Positions 45,105-58,552 of a stretch of DNA of 64,000 bases are shown piece after piece. The notes beneath the pieces are model-generated. The model ran no database searches. It was not told where the DNA came from and worked only from the letters and a program-made list of their open reading frames with translations. This stretch comes from Candidatus Micrarchaeota archaeon (GTDB taxonomy: Archaea; Micrarchaeota; Micrarchaeia; Anstonellales; Bilamarchaeaceae), in contig JBDRCX010000006.1 in assembly GCA_043821365.1 (NCBI GenBank), positions 711,417-775,416 on the forward strand. The letters are read 5' to 3'. A program made the position numbers and the translations under genes. Position 1 is the first letter of the stretch; each line of letters begins with the position of its first letter.

Positions 45105-45246
45105 GATTATTTCATTCTATGTGTTTGGATCTGTTATTCTCCTACTCATAATCTTTTATGTGAGGGGGTCTCTTTTCAAATATGGAAGTTGTAGTGGATG
45201 TCCATCTAGTGGAAATTGTATCATCGAGAAAAAATTCAAATCATAA
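45094..45246 (+). CDS. FeoB-associated Cys-rich small membrane protein (50 aa)
   Basis: Manual translation: MDYEIISFYVFGSVILLLIIFYVRGSLFKYGSCSGCPSSGNCIIEKKFKS. One TM plus a C-x2-C-x5-C cluster. Overlaps the feoB end by 11 nt. Confidence 0.6.
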   Translation: MDYEIISFYVFGSVILLLIIFYVRGSLFKYGSCSGCPSSGNCIIEKKFKS

Positions 45247-45252
45247 TCTTTC

Positions 45253-45277
45253 GTCACCTGTCGTTTCGAAAGGTGAC
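45253..45277. terminator. Hairpin GTCACCT-gtcgtttcgaa-AGGTGAC after the feo operon
   Basis: 7-bp inverted repeat followed by a TATA-like atttataaat (45281-45290) for the acn operon. Confidence 0.4.
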
Positions 45278-45346
45278 AACATTTATAAATTACCAATTCA
45301 ATCTTGTACTCTAATTCTAATACCATCAGATTAATGGCGGGATTTA

Positions 45347-47263
45347 ATGACGAATCTAACTGAAAAAATTATCAAAGAACATCTAAAAGAAGGAGAAATG
45401 AAAACTGGCCAGGAAATTGGAATAAAAATCGACCAAACACTAACCCAAGATGCTACAGGAACTATGGCTTTTTTAGAATTTGAAGCTATAGGTCTACCGA
45501 GGGTTAAAACTGAGACAGCAGTTAGCTATGTTGATCATAATACTCTTCAAACTGATTTTAGAAACCAGGATGATCATCTTTATCTTCAAAGTGTTGCAGC
45601 AAAATTTGGTGTTAATTTTTCAAGAGCAGGTAATGGTATCTGTCACCAAGTTCATTTAGAAAGATTTGCAGTTCCTGGAAAAACAATTCTTGGAAGCGAT
45701 TCACACACACCAACTGCAGGTGGCATTGGTGCAATTGCAATTGGTGCAGGTGGTCTTGATGTTGCAATTGCAATGGGGGGCGGTTCATTCTATTTAGAGA
45801 TGCCTAAGGTTATAGGTGTAAAATTAATCGGCAAACTCCCAGAATGGAGCTCTGCAAAAGATGTTATCTTAGAATTATTACGAAAACTCACAGTGAAGGG
45901 CGGGGTTGGTAAAGTATTCGAATATTTTGGTCCTGGAGTTGAAACATTGTCTGTTCCTGAACGTGCAACAATAACCAATATGGGTGCAGAACTTGGTGCA
46001 ACAACAAGCATTTTTCCAAGTGATCAAATAACTTTTAAATATTTGAAAATGCAACAACGTGAAAAATTCTGGAAAGAATTGAAGGGAGATGGTAGTGAAG
46101 ATTATTCTGAAATAATAGAACTTGATCTAAGTAAAATCGAACCACTTTTAGCAAAACCACACTCTCCAGATGCAGTTGTTTCTGCAAAAGAACTGAAAGG
46201 TACAAAAGTTACTCAAGTGATCGTTGGTTCATGTACTAATAGTTCATACAAGGATCTTATGACAGTTGCAGCAGTTGTAAAAGGTAAAAAGGTTCATCCA
46301 GATGTTAGTTTTGCAATTGTTCCTGGTTCAAAACAAGTTTATGAACAAATAGCTAGAAATGGTGCGCTTGCAGATCTTATTGCAGCAGGTGCGAGGATTC
46401 TTGAAAGTGCATGTGGTCCTTGCATTGGTATGGGTCAGGCACCATCAAGCGAAGGAGTCAGTATACGTTCGTTCAACAGAAATTTCAAAGGAAGATGTGG
46501 AACTCCGAATGCATTTGTCTATCTTGCATCACCAGAAGTCTGTGCTGCATGTGCATTAAAAGGAGAAATTACAGACCCAAGAGAACTTGGTGCTGCACCA
46601 AAAATAGAATGGCCGGAAAAAATAGATGTAGATGATTCAATGATTATCCCTCCATCAAATGGCAGTGTTGAAGTGGTCAGAGGACCAAACATTAAACCAT
46701 TACCAGATATGAAGCCATTAGAAAACTCTTTCCAAAAAGAAGTTTTGCTAAAACTTGGAGATAATGTAACTACTGATCACATTATGCCAGCAGGTGCAAA
46801 AATTCTTCCATTAAGAAGCAACATCCCAGCAATAAGTGAATTCGTCTTCAGTGCTGTTGATCCAGAGTTTGTTTCAAGAGCAAAAGAAAAACAAGGAGGA
46901 ATAATTATTGGTGGAGATAATTATGGTCAGGGAAGTTCTCGCGAACATGCTGCAATTGCTCCTCTTTATCTTGGCATTAAAGCAGTTATAGTGAAGAAAT
47001 TTGCAAGAATCCATAAAGCTAATTTAGTTAATTTTGGAATTTTGCCATTAACATTTGCAGATCCTGCTGATTATGATAAAATAGAGCAGGGCGATGTGCT
47101 TGAACTTGATGGTATTGTGGATGGAGTGAATCGCGGTACAATAAAAGTAAAAAACACCACCAAAAATTACGAGTTTTCAACAAAATTTGATGCTACTAAA
47201 AGAAATACTGAAATGCTTTTAGCAGGCGGGTTAATTAACCTGACAAAAAACAAAGGAGAGTGA
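45347..47263 (+). CDS. acn: Aconitate hydratase (single-chain, ~640 aa)
   Basis: [23 protein letters not shown] and CGPCIG (Fe-S cluster ligands), plus a swivel domain with [14 protein letters not shown]. Confidence 0.9.
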
Positions 47264-54044: not shown

Positions 54045-54311
54045 ATGTCTGACGATGAATATAATGTTGCTGCTCAAGTAAAAATATATGTTGAAAATCC
54101 AACGTTACTTGAAACTGTGAAAGTTGATATTGAAAAAGTAACCAAAGTCCAGAAATTCTGGGAGGAAGATCTTGGTTTTGGTATAAAAGTTTTGAAAGCA
54201 AATCTGCTTCTTAAAGACTCCGAGGGTGGAATGGATAAGCTTGAACAAAGCATCCGTGAAGTTAAAGGAGTTAGTGAATTGGAAGTTGAGAGTGTTACAA
54301 GGTTGGTGTGA
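54045..54311 (+). CDS. Translation elongation factor EF-1 beta
   Basis: 88 aa: MSDDEYNVAAQVKIYVENPT ... EDLGFGIKVLKANLLLKDSEGGMDKLEQSIREVKGVSELEVESVTRL. AGGTG SD upstream. The ORF track start at 54015 is too long. Confidence 0.85.
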   Translation: MSDDEYNVAAQVKIYVENPTLLETVKVDIEKVTKVQKFWEEDLGFGIKVLKANLLLKDSEGGMDKLEQSIREVKGVSELEVESVTRLV

Positions 54312-54313
54312 TC

Positions 54314-54922
54314 ATGGCAAAAAAAACAGAAAAAAAGCCTATTAAGAAAAAAGAAGAAAGTGATTCTTTTAGAGGTATAGTTCGTATTGCAGGTAAGGAT
54401 GTTAAAGGTGAAGTAAAACTTCAACGTGCTCTTTGTAGTGTAAGGGGAATTAGCCATACATTATCTGTTGCAGCAGCTCGTTTAATTGAAAAAGAACTTT
54501 CAATAGCCCCAACTCACAGAGTTGGTGACCTAACTGAAGAACAAATAGAAAAAATTGATCAACTTCTTTATTCTCTTCAAGATCATAATGTTCCTAAATA
54601 TTTAATGAACAGAAGAACTGATTTCAATAGCGGTAATGATAGACATGTTATTATGAATGATCTTATATTCGAAAACACACAAGACATAGAAAGAGAAAAG
54701 AAAGCATACAGCTGGACTGGCTATAGACATAACTATGGTCAAAAAGTTCGCGGTCAGAAAACCAGAAATACAGGCAGAACAGGTATGGCAGTCGGTGTGT
54801 TAAGAAAGGCAATTATAGCAGCTCAAGGTGGTGCTGCGGCTGCTGCTAAGCCAGCAGAAAAATCAGCAAAACCAGCAGAAAAAGCAAAACCAGCTGCTAA
54901 AGCAGCAGCAGATAAGAAGTGA
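54314..54922 (+). CDS. rps13: Ribosomal protein uS13 with Lys-rich N-terminal and Ala/Lys/Pro-rich C-terminal tails
   Basis: IVRIAGKDVKGEVKLQRALCSVRGIS ... YRHNYGQKVRGQKTRNTGR. The ATG at 54314 has GGTG 5 nt upstream. A GTG at 54308 is an alternative start. Confidence 0.9.
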   Translation: MAKKTEKKPIKKKEESDSFRGIVRIAGKDVKGEVKLQRALCSVRGISHTLSVAAARLIEKELSIAPTHRVGDLTEEQIEKIDQLLYSLQDHNVPKYLMNRRTDFNSGNDRHVIMNDLIFENTQDIEREKKAYSWTGYRHNYGQKVRGQKTRNTGRTGMAVGVLRKAIIAAQGGAAAAAKPAEKSAKPAEKAKPAAKAAADKK

Positions 54923-54926
54923 TTAA

Positions 54927-55640
54927 ATGGGCGATCCTAGAAAACTCCGGAACAAATACGAACGTCCCAAAAAATTGTGGGATGTAGACAGATTAAGACA
55001 TGATAAAGCGTTGGAATCTGAATATGGACTTAAGAACATGCGGGAGCTTTGGAGGGCAACTGCAGAACTTAAAAAATACAGACGTGAAGCAAGGCGTCTT
55101 CTTTCACTTACTGAAGAAGAAAGAAAAGATGATGCAAAAAAAATTCTTGTCAAGCTTGCTAAGTTCGGTATTCTTAAAGAAGGATCTGCTATTGATGATG
55201 TGCTTTCTTTAGAAGTCAGAGCAGTTTTGGAAAGAAGACTTCAAACAATGGTTCTTAGAAAAGGACTTGCAGTTTCTTCAGCACAATCAAGACAACTGAT
55301 TACTCATGGTTTCATTGCAATAAAAGGAAAAATAGTTACAAGACCAGGTTATCTTGTAAATGTTGCAGAAGAGTTGGTTCTTTCACATGCTAAACCAATT
55401 GAGTTACAAGCAAAAATAGTTGAAGAATCAACAGAAACTGAAAAACCAGAAGAAGCTGAAAAACCAAAAGAAACCAAGCCAAAAGAGATCGAGAAACCAA
55501 AAGAAGAAAAACCAAAAGAAAGTGAGAAACCAAAAGAAACTGAAAAACCAGAAGAAACCAAACCAGCAGAAGCTGAAGAAACTAAGCCGAAAGAAGCTGA
55601 AAAACCAGCAGAAGCTGAAAAACCAAAAGGGTCTTCTTAG
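54927..55640 (+). CDS. rps4: Ribosomal protein uS4 with a ~65-aa (E/K)KP(E/K)E repeat C-terminal tail
   Basis: MGDPRKLRNKYERPKKLWD ... S4 domain RRLQTMVLRKGLA.S..QSRQLITHGFI. The tail reads EKPEEAEKPKETKPKEIEKPKEEKPKESEKPKETEKPEE... Confidence 0.9.
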   Translation: MGDPRKLRNKYERPKKLWDVDRLRHDKALESEYGLKNMRELWRATAELKKYRREARRLLSLTEEERKDDAKKILVKLAKFGILKEGSAIDDVLSLEVRAVLERRLQTMVLRKGLAVSSAQSRQLITHGFIAIKGKIVTRPGYLVNVAEELVLSHAKPIELQAKIVEESTETEKPEEAEKPKETKPKEIEKPKEEKPKESEKPKETEKPEETKPAEAEETKPKEAEKPAEAEKPKGSS

Positions 55641-55649
55641 GGTGTACTT

Positions 55650-56237
55650 ATGACTGATCACAAAACTGAAACTAAAAAAGAAGAAAAAACCACGAAGGAA
55701 GAGACATCAAAAAAAGATGAAACACCTAAGAAAGTAGAAACTGCAAAAACTACCAAAAAAGAAACTAAAACTGAAGAAACAAAAGAAGAGACTGCAAAGA
55801 AAGAAGCGACACCACCTGAAACACCTCCTAAAGAAGAGGTTAAAAAACAAAGAAAAACTCGTTTAGCTGTTGTTCATGTTTTTTCATCAAAGAATGATAC
55901 TATAATAACTGCAACTGATGTAAGTGGTGCTGAAACTCTTGCATGGGCAAGTGGTGGTATGGTAGTCAAGTCTCATAGAGAAGAAGGGAGACCATATGCT
56001 GCAATGCAAGCTGCATTAAGAGTTGTAAATGTTCTTAAAGATAAAGGGATTACACATGTTCATGTTAAGATTCGTGCACCTGGTGGAGTTGGAACAAAAA
56101 CTCCTGGTTCTGGTGCACAGGCAGTTGTAAGAACAATTGCAAGAACTGGTGTTCGTATTGGAAGAATTGAAGATGTGACTCCGGTTCCAACTGACTCTAT
56201 GAAGAGAAAAGGTGGAAGAAGAGGAAGAAGAGTATGA
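55650..56237 (+). CDS. rps11: Ribosomal protein uS11 with a ~65-aa Lys/Glu/Thr-rich N-terminal extension
   Basis: Core: [21 protein letters not shown] ... HVKIRAPGG ... [39 protein letters not shown]. Confidence 0.9.
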
Positions 56238-56896
56238 AACTCACTCTTGATAAAAAACATGCAAATAGGATCGTTGTTATTGCAAATGATACATCATCAA
56301 GTTTTGCAAATGTAGTCAGGCGTTATGGTATGTCCAGAGTTCCAGTTATGGCTATAGAGGGTGTAACATTTTATGATAACTCTAGTGCTTTTTGGGATGA
56401 ATATTTGGCACATAGACTTGGTTTAGTGCCTTTACTTACCCCAGAAAATACACAAGCAGATACAGAAGTTACATTTTCACTTGATGCGCAGGGCCCTAAG
56501 ATAGTTCATTCATCTGACCTTGTTAGTTCTGATAAGGAAATTGTTGTTGCACAAGGAAAAATACCACTTGTGACTTTAGGTGAAAACCAACATCTGAGAT
56601 TTGAATGCAAAGCTATTGTGGGTACTGCGGTTACTCATGCTAAATTCCAAGCTGGTTTGATAAGTTATGGAATTGAAAATGATTCTGTTAGGTTTTTGTT
56701 TGAAAGTTTCTTCCAAATGGAACCAACTGATCTTGTTTCACGAACCTGCGATCTAATATTGGATGATCTTGAAAATATAGAAGCAGTTCTTGGAAAGAAA
56801 TCAGCTAAAAAAGCAAAAGCAGAGAAAAAAGAAAAACCAGTTAAGGTTGCAAAACCTAAAAAAGAAAAAAAACCTAAGAAAGAAAAAGAAGAGTAA
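56234..56896 (+). CDS. rpoD: DNA-directed RNA polymerase subunit D with a Lys-rich C-terminal tail
   Basis: [21 protein letters not shown] ... [13 protein letters not shown]. Conserved position after S13-S4-S11. Start overlaps the rps11 stop (ATGA). Confidence 0.9.
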
Positions 56897-56978
56897 CTCT
56901 CAAACTCTTTTGGAGGTTAGGTTGTCCTTGAAAGCGGACGCTTTCAAGACAGTAAAAATTATTTTCTAATTTTTACAC

Positions 56979-56993
56979 GCAGGGGTGGCAGAG
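56979..56993 (+). other. Orphan 15-nt copy of the tRNA-Leu 5' end (GCAGGGGTGGCAGAG)
   Basis: Identical to 57061-57075 and located 67 nt upstream of the intact gene. Followed by the hairpin TTGAACAAGTTCAA. Confidence 0.6.
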
Positions 56994-57060
56994 TTGTTTT
57001 GAACAAGTTCAAAGCCTCCGCCACATTCATTCGGTTATTCGACTGAAATAACTTTCATAA

Positions 57061-57144
57061 GCAGGGGTGGCAGAGCGGTCAAATGCGCCAGCTTGAGGGG
57101 CTGGTGGGTTAGTCCCTTCGAGTGTTCGAATCACTTCCCCTGCA
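57061..57144 (+). tRNA. tRNA-Leu(GAG), class II, intron-less
   Basis: GCAGGGG TG GCA GAGCGGTCAAA TGC G CCAGC TTGAGGG GCTGG [15-nt variable arm] GAGTG TTCGAAT CACTT CCCCTGC A. Confidence 0.9.
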
Positions 57145-57172
57145 TAGTCATTTTCTCTCAGTGCACTACCGA

Positions 57173-57284
57173 ATCATCACTGAGCTATTCCTAATTATCA
57201 CTGGATTTTGATTAATTCTGAACTCAGTTATAACTTTGGCAAGTTATCACCGAAAAGAATATATATCTATTTTCAGTGATAACT
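57173..57284. promoter_or_regulatory. Four copies of a TTATCAC(T/C)G-like motif upstream of and overlapping the Fic start
   Basis: Copies: atcatcactgag (57173-57184), aattatcactgg (57193-57204), agttatcaccga (57242-57253), and inverted tcagtgataact (57273-57284). A TATA-like aatatatat lies at about 57259-57267. Confidence 0.35.
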
Positions 57285-57287
57285 ACT

Positions 57288-58262
57288 ATGGCAAGAATAG
57301 TAAAAAGGATCGTTAAAGGAAAGGTTTACTATTACTTGGAAGAATCCATAAAAAAAGGAACTAAATGGATCAAAGAAAGCGTGTATTTGGGTAAAGATTT
57401 ACCCGATAACATAAAACTGACTAAAATTTACAAAAAATTCGAGGAAACGCTTAAGCTGAAAGGCATTTCTGGGATTACCCCTCCGTTTACGGAATTCATA
57501 ACCCGTCATCTCGCCCTAAAAATAGAAAAAGCAGCTAAGGATAAGTTATTGTTCTTGAATTCACTTTCTTCCAAACAGAGAATTGAATTTATCAGAAGAG
57601 AAAGAATAACATTTGTTACGGACTCAAATGCTATCGAGGGGTCAACTTTAGACTACTGGCTGACGGAAAGAATTCTCTCGGACCAAAAAAGAATTGAAAT
57701 GCTGCAGAAACGAGGAGTAATCGTTACGAATATGGATAAGGAAGAACAAGAGGCACTCAATCTAAACAAGTGCTTAGATATCTATGAAAAACTTCTTAAA
57801 AACAAAAGAGAGTTAACTGGTGAAATGATTCTACAATTTCATTGTGTGCTCCTTTCGAAAATAGATGGCTATGAACGGTACTGTGGCATTTGGAGACCGG
57901 TGAATGTAAGAATCCGCGGTTCGGATTATGTTTTCCCACATCACCAAGAAGTCCCAAAGCTTATGAATGAACTGTTTGGCTGGTATTCCAAAAATAAAGA
58001 TTTGATCCACCCGGTAGAACTTGCTGCAAAGTTCCACACTAAATTCACTACAATTCATCCATTCGCTGATGGAAATGGGAGGATGGCAAGACTGCTTATG
58101 AATTATATACTTCAAGTAAATAAAATCCCATTCACAAATATTCCTCTTAGCAAACGAAGCAAATATATGCGAACTCAGGAGGCTGGCAATCGCGGCAACC
58201 AAAAACTGTTTGTTCTTTTCTTAGCCCAAGAGATAATCAAACAGAACCAAAAATTGAACTGA
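57288..58262 (+). CDS. Fic-domain protein (AMPylase family) with an N-terminal inhibitory-helix motif
   Basis: Active site HPFADGNGRMARLL. Upstream SNAIEG matches the [S/T]xxxE[G/N] autoinhibition motif. The ATG at 57288 is preferred over the GTG at 57276. Confidence 0.9.
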   Translation: MARIVKRIVKGKVYYYLEESIKKGTKWIKESVYLGKDLPDNIKLTKIYKKFEETLKLKGISGITPPFTEFITRHLALKIEKAAKDKLLFLNSLSSKQRIEFIRRERITFVTDSNAIEGSTLDYWLTERILSDQKRIEMLQKRGVIVTNMDKEEQEALNLNKCLDIYEKLLKNKRELTGEMILQFHCVLLSKIDGYERYCGIWRPVNVRIRGSDYVFPHHQEVPKLMNELFGWYSKNKDLIHPVELAAKFHTKFTTIHPFADGNGRMARLLMNYILQVNKIPFTNIPLSKRSKYMRTQEAGNRGNQKLFVLFLAQEIIKQNQKLN

Positions 58263-58329
58263 CGTTAGTTAATCCCCTAACTCCGTTTCGGCCAGCCTTT
58301 ATATAGAACAGCTGCTAGACCAACCTCCA

Positions 58330-58513
58330 ATTGATCGAGTATAGATCAATGGACCATAAATTGATGCGTCAATTTATCGGTCGATAAGAAGGGCAAGAGA
58401 AAGGCGAAAAATGGCAGAGCGTCCGATGGAACGTCGCAACGTTCCATGGACCACAGAACGGAACGCCGTTTTGTAGGTCCTCAGATCGGCTCTGAGATTC
58501 CTTCCCCTGCATA
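58330..58513 (+). ncRNA. Hairpin-rich tRNA-Leu-related region (candidate structured RNA or decayed tRNA/att remnant)
   Basis: A TATA-like ctttatata (58297-58305) lies upstream. Five stem-loops follow:
- TTGATC-gagtata-GATCAA
- ATAAATTGA-tgcg-TCAATTTAT
- ATGGAACGT-cgca-ACGTTCCAT
- AACGG-aacg-CCGTT
- CTCAGA-tcggc-TCTGAG
Contains TGGCAGAGCG (the tRNA-Leu D-arm) and ends with CTTCCCCTGCATA (the tRNA-Leu 3' end). Confidence 0.3.
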
Positions 58514-58552
58514 CTGATCTGAGGGTTATTCCCCTTCATCTTTCTAATTTTA

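Follow-up and report, generated by a model that had tools for sequence, protein, structure and literature searches.

The closest described systems are the classical (pNOB8- or lambda-type) elements of archaea, which regenerate the tRNA gene that they enter and leave a displaced fragment of its 3′ end (PMC8371274; Islander, PMC4383910). Loss of the integrase after integration and tandem integration are known for archaeal elements, and internal deletion is a known route to integrase-less elements among other archaeal elements (PMC8371274). The locus described here, a tRNA-Leu(GAG) gene followed by a small islet carrying a Fic gene in a genome of the Micrarchaeota, shares with these elements the regenerated tRNA and the displaced 3′ fragment, and in related genomes an integrase stands intact beside the attachment (att) site. 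It differs from them in its host, of the Micrarchaeota type within the DPANN archaea, in a core of 11–13 nt (up to 24 nt in the relative G015), in an islet of one gene and 1.37 kb, and in the C-terminal zinc ribbon of the relatives' integrase. A second point of comparison is offered by cis-mobilisable elements (CIMEs) with tandem accretion and by the tycheposons of Prochlorococcus (bioRxiv 10.1101/2020.12.28.424599), with which the locus shares successive integrations next to a tRNA, scattered partial tRNAs and cargo without an integrase; the elements here are much smaller and no replication module is seen. Att cores and arms are conserved here and an integrase is absent; mobilisation in trans, the mark of CIMEs, would be a possibility. 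In the papers searched, we met with no account of elements integrated into the tRNA genes of Micrarchaeota-type DPANN archaea. The feature is of a known kind in an under-described host. In our view the locus is likely to be a scar of integration at tRNA-Leu(GAG), derived by deletion from a classical tyrosine-integrase element and still holding a selected and horizontally mobile Fic gene.

The window, that is, the whole stretch of 64,000 nucleotides analysed (C6:711417-775416), belongs to genome G000 (6 contigs, 1.2 Mb, 36% G+C, 87% complete). About 40 genomes of the same genus were used for comparison, with G031, from another family of the same order, as outgroup; the region downstream of tRNA-Leu(GAG) was inspected in 16 genomes, of which at least 8 have one or two displaced 3′ fragments of this tRNA. 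ARAGORN and Rfam call a single tRNA in the window, the intact tRNA-Leu(GAG) that the sequence-only reading had placed there, and the genes of S13, S4, S11 and RpoD (54308-56896) lie upstream of it. The last 11 nt of the tRNA and two flanking nucleotides, the 13-mer CTTCCCCTGCATA (57134-57146), recur exactly at 58501-58513, as had been noticed before, and two copies are seen where shuffling predicts 0.07 by chance in the window. The islet is therefore bounded by the intact tRNA on the near side and by a direct repeat of the tRNA 3′ part on the far side, and Fic is the only credible open reading frame (ORF) between the two 13-mers, in agreement with the earlier claim. When the 1.2-Mb genome was searched for more copies of the core, as that reading had proposed, the third and last CTTCCCCTGCATA was found at the 3′ end of tRNA-Leu(CAG) (C6:327295-327431). 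The latter gene has the same acceptor stem and 13-mer as tRNA-Leu(GAG); a non-canonical intron separates its D-arm from its anticodon stem, and ARAGORN miscalls it as tRNA-Thr.

The same site holds other cargo in related genomes. The order rpoD-tRNA-Leu(GAG) is kept in 15 genomes of the genus, and displaced fragments comprising the last 11–14 nt of the tRNA lie downstream in direct orientation in G000 and at least seven relatives. Measured from the tRNA 3′ end, the fragments are found at 1.37 kb in G000, 1.5 kb in G023, 1.3 kb in G011, 2.6 kb in G010, 0.8 and 1.8 kb in G020, 5.4 and 9.7 kb in G007, and 0.1 and 1.3 kb in G021; in G015 the distance is 1.25 kb, counted from a partial copy of the tRNA. 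One of the G020 fragments retains 44 nt of the tRNA, and the core of G015 reaches up to 24 nt. Five genomes with at least 9 kb of sequence downstream of the tRNA have no displaced fragment. The cargo varies by genome and includes, besides Fic, a YbaK-type editing domain with small ORFs, a beta-propeller protein, a TrmB-like regulator with small ORFs, an M23 peptidase, a GNAT acetyltransferase and an AbiH-like protein; cassettes of 0.8–2.6 kb in G020, G010, G011, G023 and G015 are without an integrase. An empty site, which the sequence-only reading had suggested looking for, is present in the outgroup G031, where the order is S13-S4-S11-RpoD-tRNA-Leu(GAG)-L18e-L13-S9 and about 200 nt separate the tRNA from L18e. 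Since relatives carry a matching integrase or other cargo at this position, the site is an ordinary integration hotspot. The Fic cassette at tRNA-Leu(GAG) was found only in G000 and G015. The left boundary of the G015 cassette is itself a partial tRNA, 46 nt long, and the true tRNA is thus separated from Fic by a younger element. Two side observations concern the same tRNA in other relatives. About 40 nt past tRNA-Leu(GAG) of G024 (locus L023, contig C7) stands GGTTCAAGTCTATTCTGCATAT, which looks like a decayed T-arm and 3′ end; a cassette may have been lost there, leaving a minimal scar. The orthologous tRNA-Leu(GAG) of G018 (locus L022, C1, about 45223-45348) contains a D-loop intron of about 42 nt flanked by a short GCGGTC-AAA duplication.

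An integrase is encoded at this site in G007: a tyrosine recombinase of 428 amino acids (aa) that has a C-terminal zinc ribbon (PF00589, 72.9 bits) and whose gene starts 45 nt past the tRNA. A second one (84.6 bits) lies beside a third att copy, and the two elements, of 5.4 and 4.3 kb, stand in tandem. The family is represented in 23 of 39 other genomes of the genus, with up to six copies and several pseudogenes. Its members are located about 110 nt downstream of tRNA-Leu(GAG) in G007 and G045, of tRNA-Leu(CAG) in G023, G004 and G003, and of tRNA-Leu(TAG) in G010, and more distant members adjoin tRNA-His or tRNA-Ser. These integrase genes are intact in the integrated state, and the elements are therefore of the classical rather than the SSV 'suicidal' type; no integrase fragments of the split int(N)/int(C) kind were found in the genome of the window. 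The search for a cognate integrase suggested by the sequence-only reading thus came out empty within G000 and successful at the same site in G007 and G045, for which reason the cassette is taken as a remnant or derivative and not as a complete member of the family. The left arm TCTCTCAGTGCACTACC (57154-57170) agrees with TTCTGAGTTCACTACC of G007 and G023 at 13 of 15 positions with a fixed offset from the core, and the right arm CTCAGATCGGCTCTGAG-ATTC agrees with CTCAGAACGGTTCTGAG-GTAT of G023 and G007 at 16 of 21, again at the same offset. These likenesses suggest that the cassette in the window derives from the G007-type element family. About 50 nt in the cassette of G023 are still homologous to the beginning of the integrase gene of G007, which indicates that integrase-less cassettes arise through internal deletion.

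A possible course of events can be drawn as follows. A small element with a classical, non-split tyrosine integrase would have recombined with the 3′ end of tRNA-Leu(GAG). Integration would have left a restored tRNA at attL, while a duplicate of the final 11 nt, with a few flanking bases, came to lie at attR. The integrase, and any further genes of the element, may then have been lost by deletion; both this loss and the order of the events are our reconstruction. What would be left is the 1.37-kb islet with both arms, a self-contained Fic unit and two hairpin repeats inserted later. That a degraded element used the 3′ end of tRNA-Leu as its att site and left Fic behind had already been proposed from the window, and the proposal is strengthened by the varying cargo, the integrases of G007 and G045, the homologous arms and the empty site of G031.

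The encoded protein resembles the class II Fic AMP-transferases of the FICD/HYPE type and also SoFic, which PADLOC models as a defence system of a single gene. Its catalytic motif HPFADGNGRMAR (aa 257-268) conforms to HxFx(D/E)GNGRxxR and its inhibitory motif SNAIEG (aa 113-118) to the N-terminal (S/T)xxxE(G/N) of that class; matches to FICD structures reach E=1e-22 and that to SoFic 93 bits. It differs from these proteins in an N-terminal extension of roughly 100 aa that matches no Pfam family, and it scores under the NCBIfam cut-offs for named Fic families. With SNAIEG present, the protein would belong to the autoinhibited type, as previously supposed. Compared with G015, the protein is 85% identical and the ratio of nonsynonymous to synonymous divergence (dN/dS) is 0.057 at a dS of 1.25, against a dS of 0.79 for a chromosomal neighbour. 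Judged by these rates, the gene is kept by purifying selection, and its role is probably in defence or stress response.

Fic lies in a unit of about 1.05 kb that is found elsewhere as well. In four other contexts the left edge falls at 57240-57242, at the 5′ foot of a palindrome that is probably the promoter and operator of Fic, while in DUGF01000073.1 it falls at 57185; the right edge lies between 58255 and 58308. Three contexts conserve a TATA-like box just past the Fic stop, from which a downstream or antisense RNA could be transcribed. Closest are the copies in JBAZMS010000004.1 (89% protein identity) and DUGF01000073.1 (84%), records of Micrarchaeia and Micrarchaeota metagenome-assembled genomes; no tRNA-Leu or att core was found around either, and the genes flanking Fic there are about 30–64% identical to their counterparts in the genome of the window. 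Three further contexts carry the unit at 64–73% identity. Because copies 84–89% identical sit in unrelated contexts with flanks of 30–64%, Fic is horizontally mobile and its distribution is incongruent with vertical descent; the comparison with host genes that the sequence-only reading had called for, made here on pairwise identities, points to the same movement. In JBAZMS010000004.1 the Fic unit directly adjoins a homolog of an IS200-like Y1 transposase, of which the genome of the window has a sole gene (C3:96623-97072; Pfam Y1_Tnp, 106.6 bits).

A second cassette with Fic is present in the same genome (C6:641051-642850). It contains no integrase, a copy of the hairpin module described below and, on the opposite strand, a Fic paralog of 319 aa that is 30% identical (C6:641218-642177), and it is bounded by an intron-containing tRNA (C6:642598-642850) and a displaced 3′ copy of this tRNA (14 nt exact, 19 of 22 extended). 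When 19 tRNAs were tested for a 3′ copy within 8 kb, a downstream copy was found for two, the tRNAs of the two Fic cassettes, and an upstream copy for none. In G013, a Fic gene of 49% identity follows another tRNA and is itself followed by an apparent decayed copy of the T-arm and 3′ end of that tRNA. No Fic was found within 1.5 kb of 30 integrase loci, where the flanks are too short for the result to be conclusive.

The stretch between Fic and the displaced fragment holds two copies of a dispersed repeat. The module, of about 60 nt, consists of GTCC-R-AT, hairpin 1, ATGGACC-A, hairpin 2 and YGGTC (GTCCRAT-hp1-ATGGACCA-hp2-YGGTC) and is scattered through the genus; hairpin 1 is 99% paired with four covarying pairs. 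Five copies are present in the genome of the window, three of them inside the two Fic cassettes (the one in the second cassette at C6:642548) and the others at C6:611154 and C3:96467. The second copy of the window was inserted after GTCC, since GAGAGCGTCC-TCGGG of G015 aligns with CAGAGCGTCC, module and TCAGA here. A tRNA-associated nature of the module was considered and dropped, as 16 copies in relatives have no ARAGORN tRNA within 3 kb. Descent from IS200/IS605 found no support either: one module lies beside the sole Y1_Tnp gene of the genome of the window, none is found at the 11 other Y1_Tnp loci of the genus, and the module-rich G010 and G003 are without Y1_Tnp. The 10-mer TGGCAGAGCG, which the sequence-only reading took for a tRNA piece at 58413-58422, actually lies at 58412-58421 and is a chance match. 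Exact 10-nt repeats are frequent in this 2.5-kb stretch, where five families occur. The final two bases of TGGCAGAGCG are part of the two-hairpin repeat and the orthologous position of G015 reads TGAGAGCG, so the 10-mer is not derived from a tRNA. Apart from its final 13–18 nt, the distal region is no tRNA relic.

Several observations weigh against a deletion derivative of a classical element. The exact repeat is short, at 13 nt; since the att copies of the integrase-bearing G007 elements share just 11–12 nt, it is a complete core and not an eroded one. The 11-nt core is perfect in G000 and G015 despite a synonymous divergence of about 0.8–1.25, which is unexpected for a dead neutral scar and, with synonymous sites saturated, leaves room for continued use of the site through mobilisation in trans. 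The 87%-complete genome contains no PF00589 match and no homolog or fragment of the G007 integrase, and a pattern scan of metagenome contigs for attB or attP junctions (empty site or circle) gave 0 hits. The Fic unit is also found at 84–89% identity in contexts with neither tRNA nor att core, so that it could also have reached an older scar in some other way. The cassette could alternatively be a non-autonomous, still mobilisable mini-element resembling CIMEs, moved in trans by related tRNA-Leu integrases. It has a full-length core and both arms, its core is perfect in G000 and G015 while the adjoining arm and flank sequences have diverged, integrase-less cassettes recur in five relatives, and integrases of the G007 type are common in the genus. 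We nevertheless regard continued mobility as a tentative and less likely proposal, because the remnant of the integrase 5′ end in G023 speaks for decay by deletion and not for a dedicated cassette design, because the genome has no integrase of its own, and because the contig scan returned no circular or empty-site junction. Speculatively, the 3′ ends of tRNA genes in Micrarchaeota might serve as gene-capture platforms, with cassettes of 1–3 genes, often Fic, with cores of 11–24 nt and arms under selection, and with tRNA-specific tyrosine integrases of sister elements shuffling these cassettes between genomes in trans, in a manner like that of integrons. A true integron, with IntI next to attI and cassettes ending in attC hairpins, does not fit: no IntI-type gene was found, the repeat that bounds the cassette is a tRNA 3′ end, and the integrases of relatives lie inside the elements.

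It is improbable, in our view, that Fic came later, a pre-existing empty or decayed scar receiving the unit of about 1.05 kb via transposition or illegitimate recombination. The sharp edges of the unit (57240 to about 58308), the left one at the foot of the palindrome, and its occurrence in at least four other contexts, one of them abutting the IS200-like Y1 transposase, are what such an arrival would leave. Yet tRNA-flanked Fic islets occur twice in this genome and once in G013 with paralogs just 30–49% identical, which fits Fic as habitual cargo; the unit here has no bounding transposase or terminal repeats, and the hairpin module is unlinked to Y1 transposases (1 of 12 loci). If the distal region (58320-58513) were a structured RNA in its own right, or a tRNA-Leu gene that is split or hidden by several introns, this would agree with the many disrupted tRNA genes of this genome that ARAGORN misses, with the lack of a detected tRNA-Leu(CAA) gene, with the stable fold of the stretch (z = -3.6) and with a TATA-like box upstream. 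However, the region lacks a 5′ acceptor strand, an anticodon arm and a T-loop and has no match in Rfam, on which grounds the hidden or split tRNA was rejected; its stability comes from two copies of a dispersed repeat also found away from tRNAs; and the same core occurs in G015 with the module absent and in seven relatives after unrelated sequences. We give such an RNA very little weight. Coincidental repeats at a site that never received an insertion are hardly credible at all: the exact match is just 13 nt and repeats of 10–11 nt are frequent in AT-rich DNA, but the shuffle expectation is low and the arrangement recurs in at least seven relatives with other cargo and with integrases, so that the comparative data refute it.

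The relation of the scar to a break in a ribosomal gene cluster recalls the integrase-driven inversions of Thermococcales (Cossu et al. 2017, PMC5495485), as one breakpoint of an inversion of ~46.5 kb lies exactly at the tRNA-Leu att site; in contrast to those inversions, there is no inverted att copy at the other breakpoint, the event is as old as the genus and the link is circumstantial. The sequence-only reading was right in placing the locus at the break: S13-S4-S11-RpoD lies directly upstream, and L18e, L13 and S9 are on the minus strand at 10604-9104, 46.5 kb from S13-S4-S11-RpoD-tRNA-Leu (54308-57144). A single inversion, about 46.5 kb long and with one end just 3′ of the tRNA, would explain the split. 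The order RpoD-tRNA-Leu(GAG)-L18e in G031 makes the tRNA an ancestral member of the cluster, and in G024 a distance of 47.5 kb on a single contig separates the tRNA from L18e. At all 13 of the L18e loci inspected in relatives, the same new upstream neighbours are found (a small ORF and/or a UbiA-family gene), from which it follows that the break predates the genus; no tRNA or att fragment was found at these 13 loci, and no inverted att copy at the L18e breakpoint. The earlier suggestion that the element mediated the rearrangement does not hold, since the break is genus-wide and much older than a cassette that only G000 and G015 carry at this tRNA. By analogy with the Thermococcales, the inversion could be due to an older element that used the same att site, but no trace of such an element is left.

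Upstream of the tRNA, the 15-mer GCAGGGGTGGCAGAG occurs at 56979-56993 and 57061-57075, its sole two copies in the genome, against a chance expectation of 0.05 in the window. The sequence-only reading was correct that this copy of tRNA positions 1–15 is identical; its assignment to the scar fails, as the copy opens a hairpin leader conserved in 10 of 40 genus genomes and as 5′ copies also precede two other tRNA genes of this genome, tRNA-Gly(TCC) and the tRNA at C6:642598-642850. The repeat extends to 27 nt at 85% when upstream bases are included. It is followed by the hairpin TTTGAAC-AAG-TTCAAA (56998-57013) and a second hairpin; the leader also has CTCCGCCAC, complementary to GTGGCAGAG (57016-57024), a stretch that complements tRNA positions 7–15. 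Homologs upstream of tRNA-Leu(GAG) are found in G023, G005, G011, G016, G020, G042, G044, G051, G054 and the outgroup G031, with none for a reversed control pattern, and across genomes they open with a copy of the first 7–17 nt of the tRNA. Two forms differ in their lower stem: GCAGGGG/CCCCTGC, which mimics an acceptor stem ('minihelix'), and GTGGCAG/CTGCCAC, for which G051 has the compensatory GTGGCGG/CCGCCAC. Cloverleaf-like versions stand upstream of two tRNA-Leu genes in G031. TATA-like boxes lie about 25 nt before the start of the leader, which may therefore be the 5′ end of the primary transcript. The leader occurs whether or not a cassette lies downstream, and it is not accounted for by recombination at the 3′ end. 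The 5′ copy was also considered as exon 1 of a gene with a D-loop intron, such as the true one in G018, and rejected: no bulge-helix-bulge pairing was seen by eye, and a full tRNA follows. Elsewhere in the genome, the archaeal RNase P RNA model has a weak full-length match (C6:111852-112172) of 37.5 bits against a gathering score of 84, which probably marks a divergent RNase P RNA.

Table 1. Features of the tRNA-Leu(GAG) locus, in positions of the window.
Feature	Position	Strand	Evidence
Structured tRNA leader, not part of the scar	56979-57060	+	Repeats; homologs in relatives
Intact tRNA-Leu(GAG), probable integration target (attL side) and ancestral rpoD neighbour	57061-57144	+	ARAGORN; Rfam RF00005, 51.9 bits; rpoD-tRNA-Leu synteny in 15 relatives
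attL core CTTCCCCTGCATAGTCAT: final 11 nt of the tRNA and 7 nt	57134-57151	+	Repeat search; shuffle expectation; relatives
Element left arm, with TCTCTCAGTGCACTACC	57147-57175	+	Matches left arms of G007 and G023
Perfect 15-bp palindrome with AT-rich, TATA-like loop	57242-57284	+	Inverted repeat; conserved in every Fic-unit context, including L093 and L094
Fic gene, class II, 324 aa	57288-58262	+	Pfam Fic, 84 bits; FICD structures; PADLOC SoFic; motifs
Conserved tail of the Fic unit: small hairpin and TATA-like TTTATATA (58298-58305)	58263-58308	+	Homology across contexts
Two-hairpin module, copy 1	58324-58383	+	Repeat family
Two-hairpin module, copy 2, abutted by TGGCAGAGCG	58420-58480	+	Comparison with G015
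Element right arm, hairpin CTCAGATCGGCTCTGAG and ATTC	58480-58500	+	Matches right arm of G023 and G007
attR core CTTCCCCTGCATACTGAT, displaced tRNA 3′ fragment (13 nt exact, 16/18 extended)	58501-58518	+	Repeat search; shuffle expectation; relatives

Our study documents in Micrarchaeota an active family of integrative elements specific for tRNA-Leu, together with remnants of a single gene. A Fic gene is shown moving between tiny genomes, and the junction of rpoD and tRNA-Leu is a long-lived hotspot of genome change. For the annotation of such genomes, short displaced tRNA ends can mark accessory islets even where no integrase is left.

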